51,018 nucleotides of DNA from Candidatus Rokuibacteriota bacterium (lineage in GTDB: Bacteria; Methylomirabilota; Methylomirabilia; Rokubacteriales; CSP1-6): positions 1-51,018 of the forward strand of contig JBOHPP010000038.1 of assembly GCA_050731755.1 (NCBI GenBank), in the 5' to 3' direction. Shown here one piece after another: positions 8,826 to 51,018 of this stretch. The stretch's first letter is position 1; the number at the start of each line of letters is the position of its first letter. Both the position numbers and the translations under genes were made by a program. The notes under the pieces are model-generated. The model searched no databases, was not told where the DNA came from, and saw nothing but the letters and a program-made list of their open reading frames with translations.

Positions 8826-8955
8826 TGTCAGCCATACGCGCCTAGAACAGGCCCCCCACGGTCCAAGCCGGCCTCGCGGACCCCGCTCCAGCGAAGCACG
8901 GCGCACCTCGAACAGCCCCCCCACGGTCCAAGCCGGCCTCGCGGCCCCCGCTCCA
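8826..8955 (+). repeat. about two tandem units of the 65-bp repeat family also found between nuoL and nuoM
   Basis: Unit 8891-8955 (GCGAAGCACGGCGCACCTCGAACAGCCCCCCCACGGTCCAAGCCGGCCTCGCGGCCCCCGCTCCA) differs from nuoL-M unit 2 at about 9 of 65 positions and has the same orientation. The preceding unit (8826-8890) is degenerate in its 5' third. Confidence 0.7.
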
Positions 8956-11166: not shown

Positions 11167-13509
11167 ATGTCGGCAAGGGGCCAGCCCGCACCCGGCGCCT
11201 CGCTCTCGTTCGGCGCCACCGTCACGATCTTCTTCAGCGATATCCGGGGCTTCACCGAGTACACCGACCAGTACGGCGACGAAACGGCGTATCGGATTCT
11301 GCAGCAGCACAACAGCCTCGTGCGCCGGCAGATCGAGCTGTTCGGCGGCCAGGTCGTCAAGACGCAGGGCGACAGTTTCATGGCGGCGTTTCGGACCGCC
11401 CGCGCGGCCATCCAGTGCGCCGTCGCCATCCAGCGAGCCCTGGCCTCCGGTGGCGCCGACGAACAGGGAACACGGATCGCCCTCGGCATCGGGATCAACA
11501 CCGGGGAGCCCATCCAGGAGGACGGAGACTTCTTCGGCGGCCCCGTGAATCTGGCCTCGCGCATCTGCTCTTCGGCGGGCCCGGGACAGATCCTGGTTTC
11601 AGAGACGACGCGGAACGTCTCGGGTCGGATCGAGCCCGTGGAGTTCGTGGACCGTGGCCCCCACGACCTCAAGGGATTTCAGGAGCCGCAGCGGCTGTAC
11701 GAGGTGCGCTGGACGTCGCCCGACTCGCGCGGTGGTCCGGCCAACCGGGACCTCCAGGATGAGCTGACCGGGCTGACCGAGCGCTGCTCCCAGCTCGGCG
11801 GCGAGCTCATCGAAATGAGCCGGGCGATGCAGTCGGAGACCGTGCTGCCGCCCGACACGCTGGGGCGGCAGCTTGCGGCGCTGCGCGGGGCCTTCGTCGA
11901 TCTGCGGGCTCGCATCATCCAGCGCGCCGGGCCCATCGGCGTGGCGGTGTCGCCGGCCGCCGCGGCCGCGGTGTCGCTGACCGATCTGGAGCCGGTGGTG
12001 AGATCAATCCTACAAACCGAGACCGACCGGACCACCGCCCCGCGCGCGCGGGCCGAGCCCGAAGACGACAAGACCCGACAGGCCGCGCTGGAGGCCGCCG
12101 TCCAGCGCGCGATCGGCGTGCTCAACCGCGCCCTGGCCATCGCTCATCACGACGAGGCGGCCTTCCAGCCGCTCCTCGAGTGCCAGGCCAAGGCCAGCGA
12201 GCTACGCCTCAAGCTCTCGCGGCTGGCCTCCACGAGCCGCGACTACCCCGCGCAGCGGGTTGACGAGTCGACGGTGCCCTTCGCTGACCTCCTGGCTCTG
12301 GTCGTGGGGCGGGAGGACGTCGACGACGACCGGTGGATGCAGCTGGAAGAGACCGTGGGGCGGGCGTTCGGTCGGCAACTGGCGATCGCGGCGACTCGCG
12401 GTCGACTCGTCGTCGAAGGGGTGGAGCGACGGCCGGCGCGCGCGCCGTCCCGGCCGGTCGACGTCGTCACCCCCGAGCCGCGTCCCGCTCCGGCAGCGCC
12501 GGCGCCGCCGCGTCCCCGGGCGCCGGAGCCGGAGGTGACCACGTCGGCGCCGCCCCGGTCCCCCGCCGCGGAGCCACAGGTGAGCGCCCCGTTTCGCGCG
12601 GCCGAGCCGGCAGTCCAGGTTCCCCAGCCCGACCCGCGGGCGGCTGCCGTGCCGTGGTGGGCTGCCGCGCACGCCGCCTGGGCCGCCTGGAAAGCGTCGG
12701 GAGTGGCGACAGCCCACGCGCTGCGGGCGGCGCTGGCCAGACATCCGCATCTGCTGAGCGTGCCCATCCGGCAGAGCACCAAGTACGACGAGGGTCTCCT
12801 CGCCGAGGGCTACTTCCTGCTCATCGAGCACGTCGAGAACCAGTCGCCGGCGTTCGTGCGGACAGCTCTCGACCAGGCGTTGCAGCAGACCGGTGGATCC
12901 GCCGACCCGGCGGCGCTGGCCCGCGCGCTGTACGACCTGTTGGCTACGAAGGGCAAGCTCCGGGAGACCTACCCGGACTTCCTGCGTGACGTCATGGTCG
13001 CCGCCATCCCCAATCCAGGCGTTTGGGTGGACGGCGCCCTCGTCGAGAACGACGCGTCGACGGTGGTGGCGACCCGGCCGAACGCCGCGATCGGCGAGAC
13101 GGCCGAGCGGACTCAGGAGCTCACGGATCCCAAGGACCGGTACGGCAAGCATCGCTTCGCTGTCGTAGCGGGGCCGCTGACGACGCGCTTCGTCTGTCTC
13201 AAGCGGGGCGACCTCAAGGAGGGGCGGGACATCGAGGTCACGGTCACCGAGGACGGCAAGCCCTCCGACTCCGCCCTGCTCCTCACCCTGCGCAGCGATC
13301 ATATGCTGCATACCGCTCCCAAGCGCCCGGGCGCCCAGGGAGCGCTGCTCGAAGGGCTGGGGCGCAGTTACAGTGGTCTGTGGGTCGCGCTCTTCAACTC
13401 CGAGCCGGAGGACGACAAGCGGTTCGAGGTGGTGCTGAGTCTCCGGCCCCAGGCAGCGGCCGCGCCCGTGGGGCGGACGATGTTCGGTGGGCCGGGCCGC
13501 GCCCGGTGA
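11167..13509 (+). CDS. class III adenylate cyclase domain fused to helical, Pro-rich and unassigned C-terminal modules
   Basis: ATG 11167 is preceded by GGAGGA; the track ORF starts at GTG 11134. Cyclase motifs FFSDIRGFT, VKTQGDSFMAAF, GINTGEP, GGPVNLASR. A Pro-rich linker is followed by a ~265-aa module homologous to the C-terminus of the next gene. Confidence 0.85.
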   Translation: MSARGQPAPGASLSFGATVTIFFSDIRGFTEYTDQYGDETAYRILQQHNSLVRRQIELFGGQVVKTQGDSFMAAFRTARAAIQCAVAIQRALASGGADEQGTRIALGIGINTGEPIQEDGDFFGGPVNLASRICSSAGPGQILVSETTRNVSGRIEPVEFVDRGPHDLKGFQEPQRLYEVRWTSPDSRGGPANRDLQDELTGLTERCSQLGGELIEMSRAMQSETVLPPDTLGRQLAALRGAFVDLRARIIQRAGPIGVAVSPAAAAAVSLTDLEPVVRSILQTETDRTTAPRARAEPEDDKTRQAALEAAVQRAIGVLNRALAIAHHDEAAFQPLLECQAKASELRLKLSRLASTSRDYPAQRVDESTVPFADLLALVVGREDVDDDRWMQLEETVGRAFGRQLAIAATRGRLVVEGVERRPARAPSRPVDVVTPEPRPAPAAPAPPRPRAPEPEVTTSAPPRSPAAEPQVSAPFRAAEPAVQVPQPDPRAAAVPWWAAAHAAWAAWKASGVATAHALRAALARHPHLLSVPIRQSTKYDEGLLAEGYFLLIEHVENQSPAFVRTALDQALQQTGGSADPAALARALYDLLATKGKLRETYPDFLRDVMVAAIPNPGVWVDGALVENDASTVVATRPNAAIGETAERTQELTDPKDRYGKHRFAVVAGPLTTRFVCLKRGDLKEGRDIEVTVTEDGKPSDSALLLTLRSDHMLHTAPKRPGAQGALLEGLGRSYSGLWVALFNSEPEDDKRFEVVLSLRPQAAAAPVGRTMFGGPGRAR

Positions 13510-15109
13510 GACCGTGAGCGGCAATCACACCGACTTCGCCCGCCGGCTGGCGGCGCTCGCCGAGCGACTGGCCCGCATAAGCACCGAGCTCGCGGCGGCG
13601 GGCCGCGGCCTCATCGAGCGGCGGCTGCTCCCTCCCGAGGGGCTGGTCGACGAGCTGGCGGGTATCCGCACCGACTTCGAAGATCTGAGAACGCGCGTGC
13701 TCGACGCGGCCGCCGCCCTGTCTCTCGGCCCAACGCCGCCGGTGACGACGGTACGCGAGCTCGAGGTGCTGCTCAGGGTCGTCACCGATACGGAGAGCCG
13801 GCGGGCGCGACGGCGCCAGGAGTCGGAGGTGCCACCGGCGCAGCGGTCGGCGTTCGAGGAGGCGCGGCCGCCGGCCGCCGAGGACGCCAAGCGCCAAGCC
13901 GAGCTGGAGGCTCGTCGCCGCGCGGAGGAGGAAGCGGCGCTGCGGCAGGCCGAGGAGGCCAAGCGCCACGCCGCGGAGGAGGCCCGCAAACGGGCGGCGG
14001 AAGCCGACGAGCGGGCCCAGCGCATGGAGCAAGAGCGCCGGGCAGCCGAGGAGGCCGCCCGCCGCCAGGCCGAGGAAGAGGCCCAGCGGAGGACGGTTGA
14101 GGAGGCCCGGCGTCGCGCGGAGGACGAGAATAAGCGCCGGGCCGAGGAAGAAGCCAAGCGCCAGGAGGAGGAGGAGCGCCGGCGACGCGAGCAAGAGGCC
14201 CGCCGCCGCGCTGAGGAGGAAGCTCGGCGGCCGGCCGCCGCCGAGGAGGCGCCGGCGCGAGCGGCCGAAGTCGAGGAGGCCGACCTCGGGCTGGAGACGG
14301 CCCAGTGGTGGATCTCGGCCAACGCCAGCTGGACCTCGATGAAGTCCCGGCAGGTGAGCTTCGCCGACTCCGTGCCCGACGTCCTCGTGAAGTACCCCTA
14401 CGTCTTCAGCGTGCCCATTCAGACCAGCGCCGACTACGAGGACGGTCTGTTGGCCTACGGCTACGCGGTCCTCCTCGACTACATGGAGCAGCGCTCCGCG
14501 GGATTCGTGTCCGAGGCCCTCAACCGCTTGCCCGCCCGCAAGGGGACATCGCTCGGCCGACGCCTGTACGACTACGTCGCCGAGCTGCTTCGGCCGGGGT
14601 TCGGGGATTTCATCCGGGCGGTGATGCTGGCGGCGTTGCCGCGGACGGCGCCTTGGGTGAACGGGGGGATCGAGGACAGCGAGCAGGCCACCACGGTGTT
14701 CGTGCGTCCGAGCGGCCGCCTCGGGGACACCACCCAGAAGGCCGAGCGCTTCACGCAGGAGCAGAGGCGATTCGCCGATCACGAGTTCACCGCCGCCGTC
14801 GCCCCCTTGACCGCGCGCTTCTTCCGCGTCGAGGCCACGGAGGTCAAGGACCCACGCACGGTCGAGGTGCGGCTGAGCGAGAATGGGTCACCCTCCGACC
14901 ACGCCTGGGTGGTGACGGCGTCGACGCGGGCCGCCCCCGCGCAGGCTCGGCGTCACGAGCGGCAGGGCACGACAGTGGCCGGGCTGGGCCGCGACTACAG
15001 CGCGGTGTGGATCGGGCTGTTCAACGCCGACACCGAGACGGAGCAGCGCTTCGATCTGACCATCGGGCTCAAGCGGCGGGCCGCGACGGCCGCCTTTAGG
15101 AAGAAGTAG
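13487..15109 (+). CDS. cyclase-less paralog of the preceding protein, with a long E/R/A/K-rich helix
   Basis: GTG 13487 overlaps the upstream stop at 13507-13509; GTG 13514 is an alternative start. The N-terminal helical module and the C-terminal ~260 aa align with the upstream protein (WWISANASW / WWAAAHAAW; SVPIQTSADYEDGLLAYGY / SVPIRQSTKYDEGLLAEGY). Confidence 0.8.
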   Translation: MGRAAPGETVSGNHTDFARRLAALAERLARISTELAAAGRGLIERRLLPPEGLVDELAGIRTDFEDLRTRVLDAAAALSLGPTPPVTTVRELEVLLRVVTDTESRRARRRQESEVPPAQRSAFEEARPPAAEDAKRQAELEARRRAEEEAALRQAEEAKRHAAEEARKRAAEADERAQRMEQERRAAEEAARRQAEEEAQRRTVEEARRRAEDENKRRAEEEAKRQEEEERRRREQEARRRAEEEARRPAAAEEAPARAAEVEEADLGLETAQWWISANASWTSMKSRQVSFADSVPDVLVKYPYVFSVPIQTSADYEDGLLAYGYAVLLDYMEQRSAGFVSEALNRLPARKGTSLGRRLYDYVAELLRPGFGDFIRAVMLAALPRTAPWVNGGIEDSEQATTVFVRPSGRLGDTTQKAERFTQEQRRFADHEFTAAVAPLTARFFRVEATEVKDPRTVEVRLSENGSPSDHAWVVTASTRAAPAQARRHERQGTTVAGLGRDYSAVWIGLFNADTETEQRFDLTIGLKRRAATAAFRKK

Positions 15110-39843: not shown

Positions 39844-40374
39844 CTAGGACCCGTCGGCGCGCGACCCCGGCGCCGCCGCCGGCCGCGGCCACAACTCACC
39901 GAAGAACGCGGCCCAGAAGGCGCGCGGCACCGGACGCCCGTAATCGCCGAGCAGGGTGCGGGACTCGAACCGGTGGGCCAACCGATAGCTGAAGCTGTAG
40001 AAGGCGCCGATGGACCGCGGGGTCAGCTCACCGTTGAACACGATGTCGAGGGCGAGGTGCATCAACCCGCCCAGCAGGTAGCCCCACAGGACCGGCGCGT
40101 CGGTCCACCACGTCAGCGCGGTCAGGATGGCGAAGAGCTCGTACGAGTGCAGCACCAGGACGGTCCGGCGCGCGCGGCCGGCGAGGTAGTAGCGGAGAAA
40201 GGCGCCGGGACGCAGATCGCGCTGCCGCTCGACCAGGACGTAGTCCAGGGCGTGGTCGACATCGATGAGGAAGCCGCCGAGGGCGACGCCGGCGGTGAGG
40301 GGCCACGAACCGGTGAGCGCGGCCGCCGTGCCGCAGGCGGCCACGGTCGTCAGGAGATGGCCGCCGGGGCTCAC
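39844..40374 (-). CDS. membrane-bound metal-dependent hydrolase-like protein (YdjM/DUF457-like)
   Basis: GTG 40374, 176 aa, 4-5 hydrophobic helices, His/Asp-containing FLIDVDHALDY and GGLMHLALD. The family call is tentative. Confidence 0.55.
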   Translation of the reverse strand: MSPGGHLLTTVAACGTAAALTGSWPLTAGVALGGFLIDVDHALDYVLVERQRDLRPGAFLRYYLAGRARRTVLVLHSYELFAILTALTWWTDAPVLWGYLLGGLMHLALDIVFNGELTPRSIGAFYSFSYRLAHRFESRTLLGDYGRPVPRAFWAAFFGELWPRPAAAPGSRADGS

Positions 40375-40420
40375 GTCTCCATCCTACCAGAGCCGCGCCC
40401 GGGAGCGGTCTGACCAGCCG

Positions 40421-40429
40421 TGCTATACT
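40421..40429 (+). promoter_or_regulatory. candidate extended -10 promoter element upstream of nuoA
   Basis: TGCTATACT lies 25 nt upstream of the nuoA GTG (SD AAGGAG at 40443-40448), in the divergent intergenic region. Confidence 0.25.
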
Positions 40430-40453
40430 CGCCTCTCGGGCCAAGGAGATAAT

Positions 40454-40807
40454 GTGTCCGAGTACTTGCCCGTCGCCATCTTTGCTGTCCTGATCGTCCT
40501 TTTCGGCGTGGTGTCCCTGGGCGTGGCCCGTCTGCTCCGGCCCTCTCGTCCCGACCCGGTGAAGCTCATGAACTACGAGTGCGGGGCCGAGCCGATCGGC
40601 CAGGCCTGGGTGCAGTTCCCCGTGGGGTTCTACCTGGTCGCTCTCGTCTTCATCCTGTTCGACACCCTCGCGGTGTTCCTATTCCCATGGGCGCTGGTGC
40701 TGCGGTCCAGCGGGCTCAGCGCATTCTGGGTGGTGGCAGCCTTCGTCGGCATCGTCGGGTTGGGTTGGCTCTACGCCTATCGGGAGGGCCTGCTGGAGTG
40801 GAAGTGA
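40454..40807 (+). CDS. nuoA: NADH-quinone oxidoreductase subunit A
   Basis: GTG 40454 after AAGGAG, 117 aa. NuoA pattern YECGAEPIG...[26 protein letters not shown]. Confidence 0.9.
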
Positions 40808-41433
40808 AGCCCCCTGTCCCCCAGATCCCGCCGCCGGTGTGGACCGAGATCAAGGACCTGCAGGAGTGGGAGAAGTACCGGCAGGAACGTCCGGACGGCG
40901 ACAAGACGTCCAACGCCCTGGCCGCCATCGCCGACGCCATCCACCACTTGCCCGGCGGCTGGATCATGGTCACGTCCACCGAGAAGATCTTCAACTGGGC
41001 GCGCAGCTCGTCGATCTGGCCCGTCACCTTCGGGCTGGCGTGCTGCGCGATCGAGGTGATGGCGACGTTCGCCTCGCGCTTCGACGTGGAGCGCTTCGGG
41101 ATGGTTCCCTGGGCGTCGCCGCGCCACTCCGACCTCATGATCGTCTCCGGGACGGTGACCATCAAGATGGCGCCGATGCTCAAGCGGATCTATGACCAGA
41201 TGCCCGACCCCAAGTGGGTCGTCTCCATGGGATCCTGCGCCAACTCCGGTGGCCCGTTCCGGCACGGCTACCACGTGGTCAAGGGTGTGGACCGCGTGGT
41301 CCCGGTCGATGTGTACGTCCCCGGCTGCCCGCCCACGCCCGACTCCCTGATGTACGGCCTGCTCAAGCTCCAGGAGCAGGTCGCCGAGTTTCAGAAGACC
41401 GGCCGGCGGCCTTCCTCTCCACAGGAAGGCTGA
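40804..41433 (+). CDS. nuoB: NADH-quinone oxidoreductase subunit B
   Basis: GTG 40804 overlaps the nuoA stop (GTGA). Motifs [38 protein letters not shown] (N2 cluster cysteines). Confidence 0.93.
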
Positions 41434-41439
41434 TCCGGC

Positions 41440-41892
41440 GTGACCCCGGCCGAGACCGCGGTGCGAGTGCGGGAGAGGTTTGGCGTCGAGCCCGCTGTCG
41501 ACGGCGCCGTGGTCACCGCGGTCGTCCCCGTCGAGCGGTGGCCGGAGGTCGCCGAGTTCGCCAAGCACGAGCTCCGCTGCCGGTACTTCAACTGGCTCAG
41601 CGCAGTGGACTGGAAGACGGACGGCCTCGAGGTGATCTGCCGCCTGGAGAACCTGGACGCCGGGCTGGTCCTGGTCATGAAGACCCGCCTGGGTTCCGGG
41701 CAGACACGCTGTCCCACGCTGACCGGCCTCTACCGGGGCGCCGACTGGATGGAGCGCGAGTGCTACGACATGTTCGGCGTGGTCTTCGAGAACCATCCCG
41801 ATCTGCGGCGGATCCTGCTGCCCCAGGACTGGGAGGGGCACCCGCTTCGGAAGGACTACGCCGTCGACACCCCTCACCCGCCGTACCGATGA
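41440..41892 (+). CDS. nuoC: NADH-quinone oxidoreductase subunit C
   Basis: 150 aa, GTG start. NuoC C-terminal pattern [40 protein letters not shown]. Confidence 0.9.
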
Positions 41893-41908
41893 GCGAAGGG
41901 AGAACACG

Positions 41909-42544
41909 ATGATCTACGAGCTGAGGACGTACACCCTGATGCCTGGCAAGCAGGCCGAGTACCTCAAGCAGTCCTCGGAGGTGGGTCGCAAGGTGCGCGG
42001 CGACAAGTACGGCAAGCTCGAGGGCTTCTGGACGACCGAGTTCGGCACGTTGAACCAGGTCGTGCACCTCTGGAGCTACGCGAGCCTGGACGAGCGTGAC
42101 CGCTTGCGCGGCGAACTGGCCAAGAACGAAGAGTGGACCAAGGGCTACCTCCCGCAGACGCGGGCGCTGCTGGTGGCCCAGGAGAACAAGATCCTGTCGG
42201 CTCAGGTTCCGCTCAAGCCGCCGGCCGGCGACGGCCATCTCTACGAGCTGCGCTGGTACCGAACCCAGGTGGGCAAGGCGCCGGAGTGGCTCGGTCACTT
42301 CAAGGCGGCGCTGCCCGTGCGCGAGAAGTATTCGCCCATCGTGGGACTCTGGCAGACGGAGATGGGGCAGCTCAACGAGGTCGTCCACCTCTGGGCCTAC
42401 CGGGACCTCAACGAGCGGGCCGGCGTTCGAGGCAAGACCAGCCAGGATCCGCAGTGGCAGGCCTTCCTCGGCAAAGGGTACCCGCTGCTGCTGGAGATGA
42501 AGTCGATCATCCTCAGCCCGGCGCCGCACTCCCCGATGAAGTGA
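41909..42544 (+). CDS. NIPSNAP family protein (two tandem NIPSNAP repeats)
   Basis: 211 aa, SD GAAGGGAG. Repeat signatures MIYELRTYTL...LNQVVHLWSYASLDERDRLR and HLYELRWYRT...LNEVVHLWAYRDLNERAGVR. Confidence 0.85.
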   Translation: MIYELRTYTLMPGKQAEYLKQSSEVGRKVRGDKYGKLEGFWTTEFGTLNQVVHLWSYASLDERDRLRGELAKNEEWTKGYLPQTRALLVAQENKILSAQVPLKPPAGDGHLYELRWYRTQVGKAPEWLGHFKAALPVREKYSPIVGLWQTEMGQLNEVVHLWAYRDLNERAGVRGKTSQDPQWQAFLGKGYPLLLEMKSIILSPAPHSPMK

Positions 42545-42549
42545 GGTCG

Positions 42550-43710
42550 ATGGACCCCGAGGCGCGGACGGTCGTCGAGGTCGGGTACGGAGGCAACGAG
42601 CGCCTCATCATGAACATGGGGCCGCAGCACCCGTCCGCCCACGGTGTCTTCCGCGCCATCCTCACCCTGGAGGGCGAGACCATCGCCGGTGTGGACGCCG
42701 TGATCGGCTATCTCCATCGCTGCCACGAGAAGCTGGGGGAGACCCTCACCTACGTGCAGTACCCGTCGATCGCCTCCAAGACCGACTACGTCGCGGCCAT
42801 GACGTCGGAGCTGGCTTACGTGGCCGCGGTGGAGAAAGTCGGCAAGATCGACGTGCCCCGGCGGGCCCAGTATCTGCGCGTGCTCGTCGCCGAACTGCAA
42901 CGGATCGCCTCGCACTGCCTGTGGCTCGGCACCTGGTGTCTGGACCTGGGGGGCGCCCTCGGTGGCGGTGCCACCGTCTTCCTCTACACCATGCGCGAGC
43001 GAGAGACGATCCTCGATCTGTTCGAGGCGCTCACCGGGGCCCGGCTCCTCTATGGCTTCCACCAGGTCGGCGGCGTCCGCTACGATCTGCCGGCCGGCTG
43101 GGTGGAACGCTGCCGGACGACTCTCGAGCTCGTCGATCGGCGCATCGACGAGTACGAGGCGATGCTCGACGACAACGCCTTCTTCCGGGTCCGCACGCAA
43201 GGCGTGGGGATGATCTCGCAGGAGCTGGCCCTGGAGGTCGGCCTGTCCGGGCCCCTCATCCGCGGCTCGGGTGTCGGCTACGACGTGCGTCGGGCCGAGC
43301 CGTACTCCGGCTACGAGGACTTCGACTTCAAGATCCCGGTCGAGACGGCCGGCGACTGTTACGCGCGCTACCGCGTGCGGATGCAGGAATTCCGCCAGTC
43401 GATGGCGATCGTGCGCCAGGTGTTGGACGGGCTGCCCGAGGGACCGATCGGCTCCCGGCCCGGCGTCAAGTCGGTGGGACAGGTGCGCATTGCCAAGGGC
43501 GAGGGCTACGCGCGGGTGGAAGGCGCGCGGGGCGAGGTGGGCTGCTACCTCATCAGCGACGGGAGCCCCAAGCCGTATCGGATGAAGTGGCGGGGCGCCT
43601 CGTTCTCGAACCTGGCGATCCTGCCTCACATCCTGACCGGCCACAAGGTGGCCGACGTCGTGGCCATCATGGGCTCGGTGGATCCGGTCTTCGGCGAGGT
43701 GGATCGGTGA
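42550..43710 (+). CDS. nuoD: NADH-quinone oxidoreductase subunit D
   Basis: ATG 42550. Motifs NMGPQHPSAHGVFR, GYLHRCHEKL, ...VDPVFGEVDR C-terminus. Confidence 0.95.
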   Translation: MDPEARTVVEVGYGGNERLIMNMGPQHPSAHGVFRAILTLEGETIAGVDAVIGYLHRCHEKLGETLTYVQYPSIASKTDYVAAMTSELAYVAAVEKVGKIDVPRRAQYLRVLVAELQRIASHCLWLGTWCLDLGGALGGGATVFLYTMRERETILDLFEALTGARLLYGFHQVGGVRYDLPAGWVERCRTTLELVDRRIDEYEAMLDDNAFFRVRTQGVGMISQELALEVGLSGPLIRGSGVGYDVRRAEPYSGYEDFDFKIPVETAGDCYARYRVRMQEFRQSMAIVRQVLDGLPEGPIGSRPGVKSVGQVRIAKGEGYARVEGARGEVGCYLISDGSPKPYRMKWRGASFSNLAILPHILTGHKVADVVAIMGSVDPVFGEVDR

Positions 43711-44693
43711 CGTTGGCCGGGAACCTCCTCGCCGCGTTCATCCTGCTCAACGCCATCATCGTCGTCGTGACCTACATCACACTGCTGGAGCGGAAGTTCG
43801 CGGCCCGGATGCAGTCACGCATCGGTCCTTATTATGTCGGCTGGCCCCACGGCTGGCTCCAACCGATCGCCGATGCCCTCAAGCTGATGCTCAAGGAAGA
43901 CGTGGTGCCGACGCCGGCCGATCGTTGGGTCTATAACCTTGCTCCGCTCGTCTTCCTGGTGCCCTGCCTGCTCATCTTCGCCACCATCCCCTTCGCCCCC
44001 GGCCTGGGGCTGGCCGATCTGAACATCGGCGTCCTCTTCTTCCTGGCCGTCTCGGCGCTGGAGATCGTGGGCCTCTTCATGGGCGGCTGGGGCTCCAACA
44101 ACAAGTACGCGCTGCTGAGCGCCATGCGGGCGGTGAACCAGATCATCTCCTACGATCTTCCTTTCATCTTCGCCGCCCTGGTTCCGGTGGTCCTGACCGG
44201 GTCCATGCAGATGTCGGCCATCGTCGCGGCCCAGCAGGGCCTCTTCGGGTGGTTCATCTTCTATCCTGTCATCGGCCAGCTGGCTTTTCTGGCCTTCGTC
44301 GTCGCCACGCTGGCCGCGGAGAACCGGGTCCCCTTCGACATCCTGGAGGCGGAATCGGAGTTGGTCGCCGGATTTCGCGTGGAGTACAGCGGGATGAAGT
44401 TCGCGCTGATCCAGCTCGGCGAGTACGCCCACATGCTGGGCACCTCGTTCCTGGGCGCGCTGTTGTTCCTGGGCGGCTGGCTGGGGCCGGGGGATGGGTG
44501 GCTCGGGCCGCTGTGGTTCCTGCTCAAAGCCGTCCTCGTGTTCCTCCTCGTGACCTGGGTGCGGTGGAGCTTCGTGCGCATCCGCGTGGACCAGATCCTG
44601 GGCATCTCGTGGAAGCTGCTGCTGCCGGCCACCGTGCTGTTGCTGATGGCGACTGGCTTCGTGGTGGCGCTGGGGCACGGCCATGGCCCGTAA
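43707..44693 (+). CDS. nuoH: NADH-quinone oxidoreductase subunit H
   Basis: GTG 43707 overlaps the nuoD stop. Motifs LLERKFAARMQSRIGP, PIADALKLMLKED, GWGSNNKYALLSAMRA, PFDILEAESELVAGF. Confidence 0.95.
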   Translation: MTLAGNLLAAFILLNAIIVVVTYITLLERKFAARMQSRIGPYYVGWPHGWLQPIADALKLMLKEDVVPTPADRWVYNLAPLVFLVPCLLIFATIPFAPGLGLADLNIGVLFFLAVSALEIVGLFMGGWGSNNKYALLSAMRAVNQIISYDLPFIFAALVPVVLTGSMQMSAIVAAQQGLFGWFIFYPVIGQLAFLAFVVATLAAENRVPFDILEAESELVAGFRVEYSGMKFALIQLGEYAHMLGTSFLGALLFLGGWLGPGDGWLGPLWFLLKAVLVFLLVTWVRWSFVRIRVDQILGISWKLLLPATVLLLMATGFVVALGHGHGP

Positions 44694-45249
44694 CGGTCAT
44701 CCCGGGTTCTGGCGCGAGCTCGGTCAGCTCACGCTGGCGGTGGGCCGGGCCATGGGCGTGACGCTCCGAAACCTCTTCCGCAAGCCGGTGACGGTCATGT
44801 ACCCCGACACGCTGCGGCCCTATCCCGACCGCTTCCGCGGCGTGCTGGCCCTGGTGTACGAGCCCGACACCGGGGAGGAGGCCTGCATCGGCTGCCGGCT
44901 GTGCGAGTACATCTGCCCGCCGCAGGTCATCAAGGTGGAGATGCTCAAGAGCGAGAAGCGCAACTACGCCAAGACCTTCACCCTAGAGCTCTACGCCTGC
45001 GAGTTCTGTGAGCTGTGCGTCCAGGTGTGCCCCACCGACGCCATCATCATGCTGAAAACCTTCGACCTGGCCACGGCCGACCGGCGAGAGATGCTGCTGG
45101 ACAAGGACCGCCTCCACGCGCTGGGCCGGCAGTTCTCGCCGTCGTGGGCCACCGGCAACCGGCTGCGCGACATGCAGGCCCCGCCCAAAGCGCCGCGGGC
45201 CGAGCCCAAGGCCGAGAGCGCCGAGGCCAAGGGAGAGAGCAAGGAGTGA
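44683..45249 (+). CDS. nuoI: NADH-quinone oxidoreductase subunit I (2x[4Fe-4S]) with Lys/Glu/Ala-rich C-terminal tail
   Basis: 188 aa. Ferredoxin motifs CIGCRLCEYICP and CEFCELCVQVCP. Confidence 0.9.
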   Translation: MARNGHPGFWRELGQLTLAVGRAMGVTLRNLFRKPVTVMYPDTLRPYPDRFRGVLALVYEPDTGEEACIGCRLCEYICPPQVIKVEMLKSEKRNYAKTFTLELYACEFCELCVQVCPTDAIIMLKTFDLATADRREMLLDKDRLHALGRQFSPSWATGNRLRDMQAPPKAPRAEPKAESAEAKGESKE

Positions 45250-45737
45250 CGGGCGAGGCGATAGCGTTCTGGCTGGTCGCCCTGGCCCTGGTGGCGTCCA
45301 GCCTCGGCGTCGTCGTCACCCGCAACCTCTTCCACGCCGTGCTCTACCTGGCCGCGGCCCTGGTCGCCACCGGGGTCGTGTTCCTGCTGCTGGGCTCGCC
45401 GTTCCTGTTCGCCGTCCAGCTCCTGCTCTACGCGGGCGGCGTCGTGACCGTGCTGGTCTTCGCCATCATGCTCACCGAGCGGCTGACCGGCGAGCGCATC
45501 ACCCAGACGAGCCGCTGGCTCATCAATGGCGCCATCGTGGCCGCCGCGGTGTTCGTGGGCGTGGTCGGCTTTCTCGCCACCGCTCAGCGCCCGGGGCCGT
45601 GGCCGGCGGAGGCCGACTGGACGGCTGACGTCGCGCGCGCCGTCACCGGGCCGTTCGCAGCGCCCTTCGAGCTGCTGGGCGTCCTGCTGGTCGCGGCCCT
45701 GTTGGGCGCCGTGTACTTCGCCCGGGCGGACGACTGA
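45246..45737 (+). CDS. nuoJ: NADH-quinone oxidoreductase subunit J
   Basis: GTG 45246 overlaps the nuoI stop. NuoJ pattern VVTRNLFHAVLYLAAALVATGVVFLLLGSPFLFAVQLLLYAGGVVTVLVFAIML. Confidence 0.9.
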   Translation: MTGEAIAFWLVALALVASSLGVVVTRNLFHAVLYLAAALVATGVVFLLLGSPFLFAVQLLLYAGGVVTVLVFAIMLTERLTGERITQTSRWLINGAIVAAAVFVGVVGFLATAQRPGPWPAEADWTADVARAVTGPFAAPFELLGVLLVAALLGAVYFARADD

Positions 45738-45768
45738 CGATCGGACCCAGCGTGCCTCGAACGCTCCA

Positions 45769-46068
45769 ATGACCCTTCACGCCTACCTTGTGCTGGCCGC
45801 TCTGGTCTTCGCCATCGGTCTGTTCGGCGTGCTCACGCGCCGTAACGCCATCGGTATCCTGCTCGGCATCGAGCTCATGCTGAACGCCGTGACCATCAAC
45901 CTGGTAGCCTTCGCCCGCTTCCACGCCGATCTCACCGGCGTGGTCTTCGCGCTCTTCATCATCTCCATCACGGTGGCTGAGGTCGGCGTGGGCCTGGCCA
46001 TTGTCATCGCCATCTTCCGCGTGCGCCGGACAATCGAAGCCGATCACCTGGACCTCCTCAGGGGGTAG
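45769..46068 (+). CDS. nuoK: NADH-quinone oxidoreductase subunit K
   Basis: ATG 45769, 99 aa. Motifs GVLTRRNAIGILLGIELMLNAV and VAEVGVGLAIV. Confidence 0.95.
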   Translation: MTLHAYLVLAALVFAIGLFGVLTRRNAIGILLGIELMLNAVTINLVAFARFHADLTGVVFALFIISITVAEVGVGLAIVIAIFRVRRTIEADHLDLLRG

Positions 46069-46071
46069 CTG

Positions 46072-47895
46072 ATGGCGGCCACCGACTCGGCGCTGTACGT
46101 CCTCCTTCTGCCCTTCGCGGCGTTCGTCATCCTGGCCGTGGTCCCGCCGCTCCGGCGGAGCGGGCGCCCAGCCGGCTGGCTCTCCATCATCGCCGTTACC
46201 CTGGCCTTCGCTCGGGCGGTAGTCCTGTGGACTGGCGGTGCCGCCGGCACCGCCACCTGGGCCTGGATCCCCGCCGACGGCGGCCCGATTGCCACGGTCG
46301 GCGTGATGCTGGACGGACTCTCGGCGGCCATGCTGGTGCTGGTCACCTTTGTCTCGCTGCTGGTGCAGGTCTACTCACTCGCCTACCTCGGGTCCGAGCC
46401 GGCGCCGGCCCTGGGCCGGTACTACACCTATCAGTCGCTCTTCGCCTTCTCCATGCTCGGTCTCGTGCTGGCGCCGAACTTTGTCCAGTTGTTCGTCTTC
46501 TGGGAGCTCGTCGGGCTGTGCTCGTACCTGCTCATCGGGTACTGGTACGCGCGGCCCTCGGCGGCGCGAGCGGCGGTCAAGGCGTTCTGGATCACCAAGC
46601 TGGGCGACGTGGGGTTCATCGTGGGGATCGTGCTGCTGTGGGGCGCCACCGGCACGTTCGAGTTCACCGCGCTCTTCCGGATGGCGCGGGAAGGGGCGAT
46701 TCCACTGGCGGGCCTGGGGATGACCATGGGCCTGGTCTACCTGGGCGCGGTGGGAAAGTCGGCGCAGGTCCCGCTGCACGTGTGGCTGCCCGACGCCATG
46801 GAGGGCCCCACGCCGGTCTCGGCCTTGATTCACGCCGCCACAATGGTGACGGCCGGCGTATTCATGGTGACGCGGGCCATGCCCCTCTTCGTGCTGGTGC
46901 CCGACGTGCTGAATGTCATCGGAACGGTGGGAGCCGTGACCGCGCTGCTGGCGGCGACGATGGCGTGCGTCGAGAGCGACATCAAGCGCGTGCTCGCCTA
47001 CTCCACGGTGTCCCAGCTCGGCTACATGATGGCCGCCGCCGGCGCGGAGGCGGCCGACGCCGGGTTCTTCCACTTGCTGACCCATGGCGTCTTCAAGGCG
47101 CTGCTCTTCCTCGCCGCCGGCGCCGTCATCCACGCGGTCGGCACCAACGACATCTTTCGCATGGGCGGGCTCTTTTCCGCGCTGCCCCAGACGGGCGCTG
47201 TCTTCATCGTGGGCACGCTGGCGCTGAGCGGGGTGTGGCCGCTGGCCGGCTTCTTCTCCAAGGAAGCCATCCTGGCCGGGGTCCTGGCCGGCCAGGCGAC
47301 GGGACTCTTCATGCTGCTGGCGCTCACCGCGTTCCTCACCGCCTTCTACATGTTCCGGGTCGTCTTCCTGGTCTTCTTCGGGCGCGCTCACGCCGCCGGC
47401 CATGCCCACGAGCCGCCGCCGCTCATGGCCGTCCCCATGTGGGTCCTGGCCGGGCTGACGATCGGCTTCGGCCTCCGGTTCACCGTCGCGGGCGCCGGTG
47501 AGCCTCACGCCCCCCCCTGGCTCGCAGGCCTCTCTCTTGGCCTGGCCCTGGCCGGCTTTCTTCTCGCTCTCGCCATGTACCAGCGCCGACTGTTGGATCC
47601 GGCGCGCCTCAGCGCCGTCTTTCCGCTCAACGTCCTCGACGTCATGGCCCGGCACCGCTTCGGGTTCGACGCGCTGTACGCGGGACTCTACCGGGGTTTC
47701 ATCCTCGGCTTCTCCCGGCTCATCGGCTGGATCGACCGCTACCTGGTTGACGGGTTGGTGAACCTCTCGAGCGCCTGGACGCTGCGCGGCGGTGACCTGC
47801 TCCGGCGGATCCAGAGCGGCCGGGCCCAGGATTACGTGTACGGCGTGGCCTTCGGCGTGCTGCTACTGTTCGTCTGGGCCCAGTGGTTCAGATGA
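46072..47895 (+). CDS. nuoL: NADH-quinone oxidoreductase subunit L
   Basis: 607 aa antiporter-like subunit. Motifs FWELVGLCSYLLIGYWY, KSAQVPLHVWLPDAMEGPTPVSALIHAATMVTAG, and a C-terminal lateral-helix region. Confidence 0.95.
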   Translation: MAATDSALYVLLLPFAAFVILAVVPPLRRSGRPAGWLSIIAVTLAFARAVVLWTGGAAGTATWAWIPADGGPIATVGVMLDGLSAAMLVLVTFVSLLVQVYSLAYLGSEPAPALGRYYTYQSLFAFSMLGLVLAPNFVQLFVFWELVGLCSYLLIGYWYARPSAARAAVKAFWITKLGDVGFIVGIVLLWGATGTFEFTALFRMAREGAIPLAGLGMTMGLVYLGAVGKSAQVPLHVWLPDAMEGPTPVSALIHAATMVTAGVFMVTRAMPLFVLVPDVLNVIGTVGAVTALLAATMACVESDIKRVLAYSTVSQLGYMMAAAGAEAADAGFFHLLTHGVFKALLFLAAGAVIHAVGTNDIFRMGGLFSALPQTGAVFIVGTLALSGVWPLAGFFSKEAILAGVLAGQATGLFMLLALTAFLTAFYMFRVVFLVFFGRAHAAGHAHEPPPLMAVPMWVLAGLTIGFGLRFTVAGAGEPHAPPWLAGLSLGLALAGFLLALAMYQRRLLDPARLSAVFPLNVLDVMARHRFGFDALYAGLYRGFILGFSRLIGWIDRYLVDGLVNLSSAWTLRGGDLLRRIQSGRAQDYVYGVAFGVLLLFVWAQWFR

Positions 47896-48086
47896 AGCAC
47901 GGCGCACCTCGGTCAGGCCACCCACGGTTCACGCCGGGCTCGCGGCCCCCACTCCAATGAAGCACGGCGCTCCTCAAACAGCCCACCCACGGTTCACGCC
48001 GGGCTCGCGGCCCCCGCTTCAATGAAGCACGGCGCACCTGGACCAGGCCACCCACGGTGCGAGCCGGGCTCGCGGCCCTCGCTCCA
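47892..48086 (+). repeat. three head-to-tail 65-bp repeat units filling the nuoL-nuoM spacer
   Basis: Units start at 47892, 47957 and 48022. The period is exactly 65 bp and pairwise differences are about 7-8 of 65. Each boundary reads CCAATGAAGCAC. Confidence 0.9.
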
Positions 48087-49616
48087 ATGACCGGCCTTCC
48101 GCTGCTGTCGCTGATCACGTGGGCGCCGTTCGTGGGCGCCCTCCTCATCATGTTCACGGCGCGCCACTCCCCGTTGGCCGTGCGGCTGATCGCCGCGGGG
48201 TCCACAGGGTGTTCCACGGTGCTGTCGCTCTGGACCTACGTGGCCTACGACCGGGAGGCGGCAGGCTTCCAGTTCTACGAAAAGCTGCCGCTCGTGCCGC
48301 CCCTGGGCATCGGGTACGAGCTCGGCGTGGACGGCGTGAGCCTCCTCATGGTCGTGCTGACCTCCATCATCATTCTCACCGGCGTCTTCGCGTCATGGAC
48401 GGTCACGGTGCGCAACCAGGAGTTCTACGCCCTCCTGCTGACGCTGGTCACCGGGGTGTATGGCGTGTTCGTCTCGCTTGACCTCTTCGTCTTCTTCCTC
48501 TTCTACGAGTTGGCCGTGCTTCCCATGTACCTGCTCATCGGGATCTGGGGGTCCTCGGGCGACGTCCGGCCGCGCGGGATCTTCGCCTGGGCCTACCGGG
48601 AGACGGGTGTCGGCACCAAGGAGTACGCGGCCATGAAGCTGACGCTCTACCTCCTCTTCGGCTCGGCGTTCATCCTGGTGGGGATCTTCGCGCTCTACGT
48701 GAGTGCGGGCACCGCGTCGTTCTCCTTTCTCGAGCTGGAGACGGTCAGCTTCGATCCCACCGTGCAGCGGTGGGTCTTCCTGGCCTTCTACGTGGGCTTC
48801 GGCATCCTGGCCGGCATCTGGCCGCTTCACACCTGGTCGCCCGACGGCCACGCCTCGGCGCCCACCGCCGTGTCCATGCTCCACGCGGGCGTGCTCATGA
48901 AGCTGGGCGCCTATGGCGTCGTGCGGTTGGGCATGGGGCTCCTGCCCGATGGAACCCGCGATCTGGCCTGGCTGATGGGCTCGGTGGCCTGCGTCAACAT
49001 CGTGTACGGGGCCCTGTCGGCCATGGCCCAGACCGACCTCAAATACGTCATCGCCTACTCGTCCGTCTCCCACATGGGGATCGTCATGTTGGGCGCGGCC
49101 ACCCTCACCGAGGCCGGCCTGAACGGCTCGGTGTTCCAGATGTTCGCCCACGGCATCATGACCGGCCTCTTCTTCGCCCTGGTCGGCCTCGTGTACGAGA
49201 AGGCCCACTCGCGGGAGATCATGCGCATGGGCGGCTTCGGGCGAGCGATGCCCGGCATCGCCACCGCGTTCACCGTCGGCGGTCTCTCGTCGCTCGGGCT
49301 GCCGGCCACGGCCGGTTTCGTGGCCGAACTGCTGACGTTCCTGGGCGCCTGGCGCTCGGCCCACCCATGGTGGCTCCTGCCGGCGGTGGCCGGCACGTTT
49401 CTCACCGCCATCTACGTGCTTCGGGTGACCAAACAGATCTTCTGGGGTCCGCCGTCCCCGCACTTCCACGATCTCGTCGATGCCCGGGGCCCCGAGTGGG
49501 TGGCCGTGGTGGTGCTGGTGGCCGTTCTGGTGCTCTTCGGCATGATACCGGCGCTCGCGGTGGCGCTCATCGACACGGCGACCGTGCCCCTGCTGGCCCG
49601 GATCGCGGCGCCGTGA
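48087..49616 (+). CDS. nuoM: NADH-quinone oxidoreductase subunit M
   Basis: Preferred start ATG 48087 (MTGLPLLSLITWAPFVGALL); the track start 48057 lies inside the repeat. Motifs FFLFYELAVLPMYLLIGIWG and HTWSPDGHASAPTAVSMLHAGVLMKLG. Confidence 0.9.
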   Translation: MTGLPLLSLITWAPFVGALLIMFTARHSPLAVRLIAAGSTGCSTVLSLWTYVAYDREAAGFQFYEKLPLVPPLGIGYELGVDGVSLLMVVLTSIIILTGVFASWTVTVRNQEFYALLLTLVTGVYGVFVSLDLFVFFLFYELAVLPMYLLIGIWGSSGDVRPRGIFAWAYRETGVGTKEYAAMKLTLYLLFGSAFILVGIFALYVSAGTASFSFLELETVSFDPTVQRWVFLAFYVGFGILAGIWPLHTWSPDGHASAPTAVSMLHAGVLMKLGAYGVVRLGMGLLPDGTRDLAWLMGSVACVNIVYGALSAMAQTDLKYVIAYSSVSHMGIVMLGAATLTEAGLNGSVFQMFAHGIMTGLFFALVGLVYEKAHSREIMRMGGFGRAMPGIATAFTVGGLSSLGLPATAGFVAELLTFLGAWRSAHPWWLLPAVAGTFLTAIYVLRVTKQIFWGPPSPHFHDLVDARGPEWVAVVVLVAVLVLFGMIPALAVALIDTATVPLLARIAAP

Positions 49617-51018
49617 CCCCATTCTTCCTCGAGCTCGGCGTGGGCCTCCTGGCCCTGGTGGTCTTCCTCGCCACCCTGGTCGGGCGCGGCGACGACCGAC
49701 GCTGGATCGGTTGGCTGAGTGCCGCCGGCGTCCTGCTGCTCACCGGCGCCGCGCTGGCCTTGCCGCCGACGCCGCCCGCGCTCGGCGGCATGTTCGTCCA
49801 AGATGGCCTGGCCCTCTTCGCCAAGCGCCTCTTTCTGGTTGCCACCTTCATCGGGCTGCTGGGTGGGCTGGCCCAGCCGGGGCAGGTGTTCGCCCGCCGG
49901 GCCGGCGAGTATCACCTGCTGATGCTGGCCTCGCTGCTGGGCATGCTCGTGCTGGCCTCGGCCCGCGACCTGGTGCTCCTGTTCGTCGCTTTCGAGCTGA
50001 TGTCGATCCCGCTCTACGTACTGTCGGGCTTCGCCAAGCGAGAAGGCACCTCGGTGGAGGCGGCCCTCAAGTTCTTCCTCGTCGGCAGCGTGTCCTCGGC
50101 GGTGATGGCCTATGGGCTATCGTTCGTCTACGGCGCGGCGCGCACGACGAGCCTGGCCGGGGTGGCCAGGGCGCTGGGCGCCGGCGATCCGCTGCTCGTC
50201 CTGGGCCTGCTCGCCGCTTTCGCCGGCTTTGCCTTCAAGATCGCCGCCGTGCCCTTCCACATGTGGGTGCCGGATACCTACGAGGCCGCGCCCACGCCTT
50301 TCGTGGCCTGGCTGTCGGTGGCGCCGAAGGCCGCCGGGTTCATCGCCCTGTTCCGGGTCTACTTCGAGGGCGTCGGGACGGAGGTGGAGCGATGGATCCC
50401 GATGGCGGCGGCGCTGGCCACGGTGACCATTGTCGCCGGCAACCTCATGGCGTTGCCCCAGCAAAACGCCAAGCGCCTGCTCGCCTACTCGGGCATCGCG
50501 CATATCGGCTACATGCTGGTGGGCTTCGCCGCCGCCTCGGTGGCGGGGACGGCGATGGTCCTCTTCTACCTGGTCGCTTACGTGTTCGGCAACATGGGGG
50601 CCTTCCTAGTGGTGGATGCGCTGGCGCGGGCCGAAGGCTCGGAGCACCTGAGCGCCTTCCGGGGCCTGGCTCAGCGCTCGCCCCTGCTGGCGCTGGCTAT
50701 GCTGTTGTTCCTGCTCTCGCTCGGTGGCATCCCCTTCGTCGCCGGCTTCTGGGCCAAGCTCTACGTGTTCTGGGCGGCGGCCGTGGCTGGGCTCTACTGG
50801 CTGGTGCTGGTGGGCGCGGTGCTGACCGTGGTCGCCCTCTTCTACTACCTGATCGTCGCCAAGCGCATGTACATCGAGCCGCCGGTCCGCACCGACCGGG
50901 TGCGGCTGCCCACGACGCTGGCCCTCGCGGTGCTCCTGTGCGTGCTGGGGGTCGTGATCCTGGGCGTCTATCCCAAGCCGGTCGTCATGGCGGCGCTGCG
51001 GGTCGCGGCGCCGCTGTT
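49613..51018 (+). CDS. nuoN: NADH-quinone oxidoreductase subunit N (partial, runs off right edge)
   Basis: Not in the track because there is no stop in the window. GTG 49613 overlaps the nuoM stop (GTGA). Hand translation: VTPFFLELGVGLLALVV...FELMSIPLYVLSGF...AAVPFHMWVPDTYEAAPTPFVAWLSVAPKAAGF...AYSGIAHIGYMLVG. Confidence 0.9.
   Translation, partial: MTPFFLELGVGLLALVVFLATLVGRGDDRRWIGWLSAAGVLLLTGAALALPPTPPALGGMFVQDGLALFAKRLFLVATFIGLLGGLAQPGQVFARRAGEYHLLMLASLLGMLVLASARDLVLLFVAFELMSIPLYVLSGFAKREGTSVEAALKFFLVGSVSSAVMAYGLSFVYGAARTTSLAGVARALGAGDPLLVLGLLAAFAGFAFKIAAVPFHMWVPDTYEAAPTPFVAWLSVAPKAAGFIALFRVYFEGVGTEVERWIPMAAALATVTIVAGNLMALPQQNAKRLLAYSGIAHIGYMLVGFAAASVAGTAMVLFYLVAYVFGNMGAFLVVDALARAEGSEHLSAFRGLAQRSPLLALAMLLFLLSLGGIPFVAGFWAKLYVFWAAAVAGLYWLVLVGAVLTVVALFYYLIVAKRMYIEPPVRTDRVRLPTTLALAVLLCVLGVVILGVYPKPVVMAALRVAAPL

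Follow-up and report, generated by a model that had tools for sequence, protein, structure and literature searches.

We describe here a tandem array that fills the spacer between nuoL and nuoM on contig JBOHPP010000038.1 of a Candidatus Rokuibacteriota bacterium (assembly GCA_050731755.1), of which positions 1 to 51,018 were analyzed (51,018 nt; hereafter the window). We found that this array is a member of a dispersed family of 65-nt direct repeats that is specific to Rokubacteria, and that the family works like the interspersed repetitive units of mycobacteria (MIRUs). We think it likely that its units are mobile, expandable repeats of the MIRU kind, which are tolerated where they insert as the stop/start overlaps are regenerated, leaving a chain of junctions that could act as a termination-reinitiation relay. 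Nearly all of our doubt about this reading concerns the relay and the insertion mechanism, and not the classification. The features at the junction, all on the forward strand, are as follows:

46072 to 47895, + strand: nuoL, 607 aa, with its TGA stop (47893-47895) inside the first ATGA (Pfam Proton_antipo_M and Proton_antipo_N; open reading frame (ORF) list).
47892 to 47956, + strand: repeat unit 1, 65 nt; mini-ORF 1 reads MKHGAPRSGHPRFTPGSRPPLQ, and its TGA overlaps the next ATG (sequence, Tandem Repeats Finder (TRF), unit alignment).
47957 to 48021, + strand: repeat unit 2, 65 nt; mini-ORF 2 reads MKHGAPQTAHPRFTPGSRPPLQ (sequence, TRF, unit alignment).
48022 to 48086, + strand: repeat unit 3, 65 nt; mini-ORF 3 reads MKHGAPGPGHPRCEPGSRPSLQ, and its TGA (48088-48090) overlaps the nuoM ATG.
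48087 to 49616, + strand: nuoM, 509 aa, whose start codon is the ATG in the last ATGA (Pfam; homologues; ORF list).

The 191-nt spacer is filled by three 65-nt tandem units, each made of an ATGA and a 61-nt body, and TRF returned positions 47892-48090 as a single array (period 65, 3.1 copies, 87% matches, 0 indels, score 307) that is by far the strongest tandem repeat of the 51-kb window, the next best scoring 63 or less. A preliminary description of this DNA, made from its letters, had proposed the three 65-bp units, and both TRF and the sequence bear this out; the identity of 88-89% that it gave holds for two pairs of units (89% and 88%), the third pair being 85% identical. ATGA stands at 47892, 47957, 48022 and 48087 and gives three 22-codon ORFs, chained stop over start from the nuoL stop to the nuoM start, and on checking the sequence we obtained the same three translations and the same chain as had been written down before. 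The boundaries had also been described as CCA-ATGA throughout: ATGA is indeed present at all four, with CCA before it at only two (the preceding bases are, in order, CAG, CCA, TCA and CCA). NuoM homologues align from residue 1, and the ATG at 48087 is therefore the real nuoM start. The longest nuoM ORF opens at a GTG at 48057, inside repeat unit 3, and automatic annotation probably over-extends NuoM by 10 residues.

To delimit the family we scanned one genome per species (185,579 species) with the core motif CACGGTNNNNGCCGGNCTCGCGGNCCCC, from which the unit boundary was deliberately excluded, and recovered 86 loci, all but two of them in metagenome-assembled genomes (MAGs) of Rokubacteria and about 40 from one MAG, AR19. 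An nhmmer search with a profile built from the units resolved 164 units in 112 arrays (set 1), comprising 76 solo units, 25 doublets, 9 triplets, one array of 4 and one of 7; the periods between 3′ anchors were 65 (25 cases), 66 (22), 63 (4) and 64 (1). A looser motif added at least 81 further loci, almost exclusively in Rokubacteria, with at least 111 units in at least 88 arrays (set 2). The family thus amounts to at least about 275 units and 200 arrays at more than 160 loci, nearly all in Candidatus Rokubacteria/Methylomirabilota MAGs; outside this group there were a few stray single matches, and none from Mycobacterium was among the matches listed from the two core-motif scans. As ATGA placement is found family-wide, the mini-ORF chain is a trait of the family and not a set of peptide genes. 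Another member of the family lies elsewhere in the window:

8826 to 8955, + strand: second array of about two units, intergenic, with boundaries GCGA and ACAT and no start/stop chain.

This array precedes an AMP-binding (acs-like) gene by 57 nt, and the second copies reported near 8.8 kb in the preliminary description are accordingly real, with no ATGA boundaries.

Several other loci of the family are of interest in their own right. The largest array (L142:5895-6342) has 7 units with a 63-nt period and AAAGCC/AATCGCC boundaries; it contains no internal start codons, and its last unit alone adjoins an ATGA gene start. At five AR19 loci (L107, L122, L126, L127 and L147) another conserved module, about 70 nt long (TTGATCATAGGCTCGCCTCGGACGGCGGGGCCCCAGCCCCGCG...GCAATGCC), comes after the main unit; it ends directly on the ATGA of the downstream ORF (e.g. 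L147:5185-5280) and, unlike the main unit, has a strong 7-bp GC hairpin (GCGGGGC-CCCA-GCCCCGC); this module may be a distinct ‘terminal’ unit type. In two species-level MAGs, L088:4323-4386 and L115:4858-4921 have the same flank and unit (gtgacacgggagCGGTGCTGA...CTACA/ATGAGCGC), so there are old insertions that have been kept at orthologous sites, alongside others that are polymorphic between strains.

Units of the family lie on start codons and on stop/start overlaps, co-oriented with the genes. As controls, positions drawn at random from these loci were scored under identical rules, and we counted as gene-like any ORF of at least 60 codons with a GC content at third codon positions (GC3) of at least 0.78. 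[AG]TGA directly followed 76/112 arrays in set 1 and 38/88 in set 2 (vs. 5.7% at random); the array adjoined the start of a gene-like downstream ORF in 63/112 and 41/88 (vs. 9.6%); and its opening NTGA contained the stop of a gene-like ORF upstream in 40/112 and 23/88 (vs. 0.35%). It is in its ATGA boundaries, its spacing and its placement at gene starts that the family exceeds chance. It had been suggested beforehand that copies across the genome might usually lack the ATG/TGA boundaries, which would make the mini-ORFs incidental; in our counts most copies do have such boundaries, and those of the 8.8-kb type proved to be a minority. The idea that the original Shine-Dalgarno (SD) motif is kept ahead of the first mini-ORF was dropped, SD use in these genomes being weak (24% of control gene starts).

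The geometry of the window array is repeated throughout the family. Of the 82 units flanked on both sides by a start codon, 55 are open with a TGA that overlaps the next start, 12 are fused in frame to the next unit, 9 stop at most 12 nt before the next start and 4 break the frame; the corresponding 31 units of set 2 divide into 21 coupled, 8 fused and 2 other. The start-to-start spacing of the 82 units, mostly 65 nt, leaves a remainder of 2 on division by three in 62 units, of 0 in 15 and of 1 in 5. The two main subfamilies reach a length of 65 nt in different ways, by 25 nt before the core and 40 nt from the core onward (n=32) or by 26 and 39 nt (n=21), and the mixed forms are rare (25+39, 64 nt, n=3; 26+40, 66 nt, n=2). 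Of the translational-coupling relay that the preliminary description had offered as one possible role, the architecture is thus family-wide (55/82, and 21/31 in set 2), and the relay itself is what this geometry suggests.

We then compared the nuoL/nuoM junction with that of relatives, the best NuoM matches among GTDB species representatives being 87-89% identical. The 80 related nuoL/nuoM junctions are mostly tight, about a third of them being a bare ATGA overlap, and arrays of the family occur at this junction only in the window, in L015, where ATGA opens each unit, and in L045, where the inner boundary is ACAG and ATGA stands on both flanks. The ancestral nuoL/nuoM junction is a 4-nt ATGA overlap. 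In a neighbor-joining tree of the single gene NuoM the three array-bearing lineages are not sisters, and their array-less partners have a plain ATGA overlap (L002 and L001) or a 4-nt gap (L003), a pattern suggesting that arrays were gained more than once at this 4-nt overlap, or precisely lost more than once. A single ancestral insertion for all three is not favored, as each pairs with an array-less lineage on this single-gene tree. The family-wide ATGA, the plain ATGA overlap as ancestral junction and the precedent of the MIRUs had all been overlooked in the preliminary description, which had seen the repeat as an insertion that preserves a series of junctions.

A much closer comparison came from a metagenome contig (Ga0187892_10000063, 232 kb; L178) that is 98.8-99.3% identical to window positions 41875-50547. 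L178 has 2 units at nuoL/nuoM (reverse strand, 2458-2591) vs. 3 in the window, both counts being taken from assemblies, and the 1-kb flanks are 99% identical; the unit sequences themselves differ by 5-12%, and either the array changes at a much higher rate than the DNA around it or its units are reshuffled by exchange with each other. The two strains also differ at a second junction of the operon, and a third junction of the same kind is unoccupied:

43707 to 43710, + strand: nuoD/nuoH GTGA stop/start overlap, an empty site in the window; L178 has one 61-nt body and an ATGA there.
49613 to 49616, + strand: nuoM/nuoN GTGA stop/start overlap, unoccupied, of the junction kind used by the repeat family.

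At nuoD/nuoH the window reads ...GATCG-GTGA-CGTTGGCC and L178 reads ...GACCG-GTGA-(61-nt body)-ATGA-CCCTGGCC. The two are an empty/filled pair, in which the insertion regenerates the nuoD stop and a nuoH start. Near-identical strains are thus polymorphic for both the presence and the copy number of units.

We reasoned that these observations could be joined in one mechanism. A copy of the element would enter an ATGA overlap and regenerate NTGA on both of its sides, either by duplication of the target tetranucleotide or by means of an ATGA that the element itself carries, so that the nuoL stop and the nuoM start survive. The array would then grow by slippage or unequal recombination of ‘body + ATGA’, which mechanically yields a chain of ATGA junctions. 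A ribosome ending nuoL would reinitiate on the 22-codon mini-ORFs one after another and then on nuoM, which is possible because the period is of the form 3n+2 and the GC-rich unit is free of stops in that frame; such a relay would leave the insertion nearly neutral for nuoM/nuoN expression, and the mini-ORFs would be ribosome shuttles and not products. A more far-reaching version, which we put forward tentatively and hold to be possible, though we would not bet on it, is that the family is an active mobile element that specifically targets NTGA starts and overlaps, has neither terminal inverted repeats nor a hairpin nor a recognizable link to a transposase and is ‘translationally transparent’, ribosomes being handed on along the chained mini-ORFs, with the number of units (2 or 3 at nuoL/nuoM) tuning the NuoL:NuoM:NuoN ratio.

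A number of observations weigh against this mechanism. Frame +2 is stop-free in 72/76 units and frame 0 in 68/76, and since frame +2 is as open as frame 0 the open frame alone does not exceed chance; the excess of tolerated spacings among variants of other lengths than 65 nt is marginal (23/28, one-sided p=0.057), and copies within an array or subfamily are inherited, so that all such counts are not of independent events. About half of the units have no start codon at one or both boundaries, among them those with a ACGGAGCC-type 5′ end and the window’s copies at 8.8 kb, and coupling geometry is therefore not obligatory for a unit to persist. The nuoD/nuoH repeat of L178 has GTGA on its left and ATGA on its right, accompanied by two synonymous changes in nuoH codons 2-3, while other loci have GTGA on both sides (L113 and L128) and at some loci the 5′ end is of the ACGGAGCC type and only the 3′ end lies on a start codon. 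A simple target-site duplication as the sole mechanism fits neither the GTGA...ATGA arrangement at nuoD/nuoH nor the ACGGAGCC 5′ ends adjoining a gene ATG. SD content is neutral in this respect: an SD motif lies upstream of the first ATGA in 12/65 cases, vs. 34/143 control gene starts (24%) and 13% at random, in genomes that use SD weakly. Gene-likeness, moreover, was assigned by a crude rule of ORF length and GC3 and not by a gene caller; the comparison genomes are all MAGs, in which repeat copy number may be misassembled; and the case for the relay is a geometrical one in an uncultured organism. We also considered that the 5′ ends of units might copy the first codons of the downstream gene, and rejected this as the sequences differ beyond ATGA.

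The main rival to a MIRU-like repeat, which we regard as unlikely, is that the family is a dispersed cis-acting site, recognized by a regulator, a nucleoid protein or a recombinase or serving as a translation or mRNA-processing signal, whose core is functional and whose mini-ORF chain is incidental. Conservation is far stronger in the core (CCACCCACGG...GCCGGCCTCGCGG), which is kept whatever the frame, than in the 5′ part or at the boundaries, although this conservation is partly imposed, the core having been the search pattern by which loci were found; the persistence of about half of the units with no boundary start codon, and a place directly 5′ of start codons that would suit a translation-initiation signal, are in line with such a site. 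However, the flanking genes are functionally unrelated, an SD motif occurs inside only 1/90 units, and a regulatory site would not usually have a copy number that runs from 1 to 7 and is unequal in near-identical strains. That an error of assembly, or slippage at this one place with no wider meaning, produced the array is scarcely credible: short-read MAG assemblies can miscount tandem repeats, and 2 units in a near-identical strain vs. 3 in the window could be taken that way, but an array stands at the same junction, with distinct unit alleles, in an independent assembly, dozens of MAGs carry arrays of this family, at more than 150 other loci, and units that differ by 11-15% are not collapsed or duplicated reads.

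Two further readings, both raised in the preliminary description, give the unit a product or a fold. A structured element of the repetitive extragenic palindrome (REP)/BIME kind, whose hairpins would stabilize the upstream mRNA, attenuate operon transcription or serve a RAYT-type transposase, would account for units that are intergenic, GC-rich, dispersed and often inside operons, and short local hairpins can be drawn (e.g. CCGCG-loop-CGCGG near the 3′ end). Nevertheless, the folding of the array on both strands and of five single units did not surpass that of dinucleotide shuffles (z between -0.3 and +1.7), and RNAalifold on 121 distinct units gave -4.3 kcal/mol with 0 compensatory pairs. The helix proposed earlier between AGCACGGCG and CGCCGGGCT failed here, pairing in 51% of cells, equal to shuffled controls, and a CCTG-NNN-CAGG hairpin suspected by eye had pair counts at shuffle level. 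No inverted repeats, terminal or internal, and no palindrome were found within a unit, the only matches being between different units, and the unit ends are not complementary. In Rfam the only two matches were at chance level (E about 0.8-0.9), neither of them in the array, and ARAGORN found no tRNA or tmRNA; the repeats are, in addition, direct and fixed in orientation relative to the genes. The REP-like reading is thereby largely refuted, and we give it little credence. A functional 22-aa micropeptide or sensing leader peptide encoded by each unit, for which we see hardly any chance, would explain the ATG start, open frame and TGA stop of each mini-ORF and the MKHGAP...HPR...PGSR common to the three window peptides. 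However, the distance from the ATG to the conserved core is 25 nt in 55 units but 26 nt in 27, which puts the core in different frames in the two main subfamilies (MKHGAPRSGHPRF... in the window type, MSDARLSQATHGAR... in the commonest type with a 25-nt offset), and the peptides are not conserved; the window units differ from their alleles in the 99%-identical strain L178 by amino-acid changes, in variants of 66 nt the units are fused in frame, an ATG is missing from many units, and the equally open frame +2 tells against it as well. The family thus has neither a conserved RNA fold nor a conserved peptide.

The array is set in a nuo operon of the 11-subunit type (window 40265-51016; nuoA, B, C, D, H, I, J, K, L, M and N, with no nuoE/F/G). 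GTGA overlaps occur at nuoD/H, nuoI/J and nuoM/N, the nuoK/L gap is 3 nt and nuoH/I overlap by 11 nt, which agrees with the tight spacing previously noted for the other nuo junctions. A NIPSNAP-domain gene (41909-42544) sits between nuoC and nuoD. Elsewhere in the window, positions 13856-14239 (in the ORF at 13487-15109) form a Glu/Ala/Arg-rich coding repeat with 24-nt and 72-nt periodicity and 8 copies of the 72-nt family; no Pfam match was found for this ORF.

For those who annotate or assemble such genomes, the family has practical consequences: gene callers will misplace starts beside units, spurious 22-aa ORFs will be called, and copy number may be misassembled. The arrays are, at the same time, ready-made variable-number tandem repeat markers for Rokubacteria strains in metagenomes, and the pair formed by the window and L178 captures a recent gain or loss event that can be used for working out the insertion mechanism.

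In the literature that we searched, we found no paper on tandem or interspersed repeats of Rokubacteria and no other ‘MIRU-like’ family of this type, and we set the family against the known classes of short bacterial repeat. Like the REP, BIME and REPIN elements of Enterobacteria and Pseudomonas, it is abundant, GC-rich, short, extragenic and often placed between operon genes; REPs, however, are imperfectly palindromic, fold into stem-loops and come as inverted pairs to which RAYT transposases are linked (PMC3184786), whereas the Rokubacteria units have no dyad symmetry or covariation, keep a fixed orientation and lie on start codons rather than after stops. Miniature inverted-repeat transposable elements (MITEs; Correia, ERIC, RUP) are likewise non-autonomous, short and dispersed, with insertion polymorphism between strains, but they have terminal inverted repeats and are usually single copies (PMC3184786), whereas the units described here have no such termini, are commonly in tandem and are tied to start codons. 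The likeness to coupling upstream ORFs and to the leaders of synthetic ‘bicistronic design’ lies in a short ORF that ends in ATGA and delivers ribosomes downstream (PMC12548453); those leaders are single and locus-specific, whereas here the ORF is repeated, variable in copy number and chained up to three times in the window (elsewhere seven).

The closest counterpart is the MIRU. According to the passage of PMC12548453 that cites Supply 1997, MIRUs insert at start codons and the MIRU ORF is coupled at a -4 spacing; they are units of 40-100 bp at 40-50 loci, with ORFs overlapping the adjacent genes and tetranucleotide direct repeats at filled sites (Delihas, PMC3184786). The Rokubacteria units are, in the same way, short direct repeats (65 nt), solo or tandem (1-7 units), at dozens of dispersed loci, and they are intercistronic, co-oriented with the flanking genes and placed at start codons or stop/start junctions. 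The stop of the unit ORF overlaps the next start at the same -4 spacing, in all three window units as in the coupled majority of both sets, and the filled sites carry tetranucleotide repeats, the window reading ATGA-(unit-ATGA)x3 where relatives have a plain ATGA; the nuoD/H pair, GTGA vs. GTGA-unit-ATGA, resembles this imperfectly, with a G/A difference and 2 nearby changes. Copy number varies between strains, as for the 3 units of the window and the 2 of L178. In contrast, the unit sequence is unrelated to that of MIRUs, as judged by the core-motif scans and not by alignment to a MIRU consensus, the 65-nt units belong to another phylum, and the imperfect terminal and internal GC-rich inverted repeats of MIRUs (Delihas, PMC3184786) were not seen in them. 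Since the architecture is that of a MIRU and the sequence is not, we file the family as one that works like MIRUs, not as MIRUs; it belongs with neither REPs nor MITEs nor peptide genes. The MIRU strategy, in which a repeat colonizes gene starts and overlaps and stays harmless through a rebuilt, coupled mini-ORF, is therefore not a mycobacterial peculiarity and recurs with unrelated sequence in an uncultured soil phylum, and if the family is indeed a mobile, translationally transparent element, it would be a convergent, phylum-wide counterpart of the MIRUs and a natural system for multi-step reinitiation.

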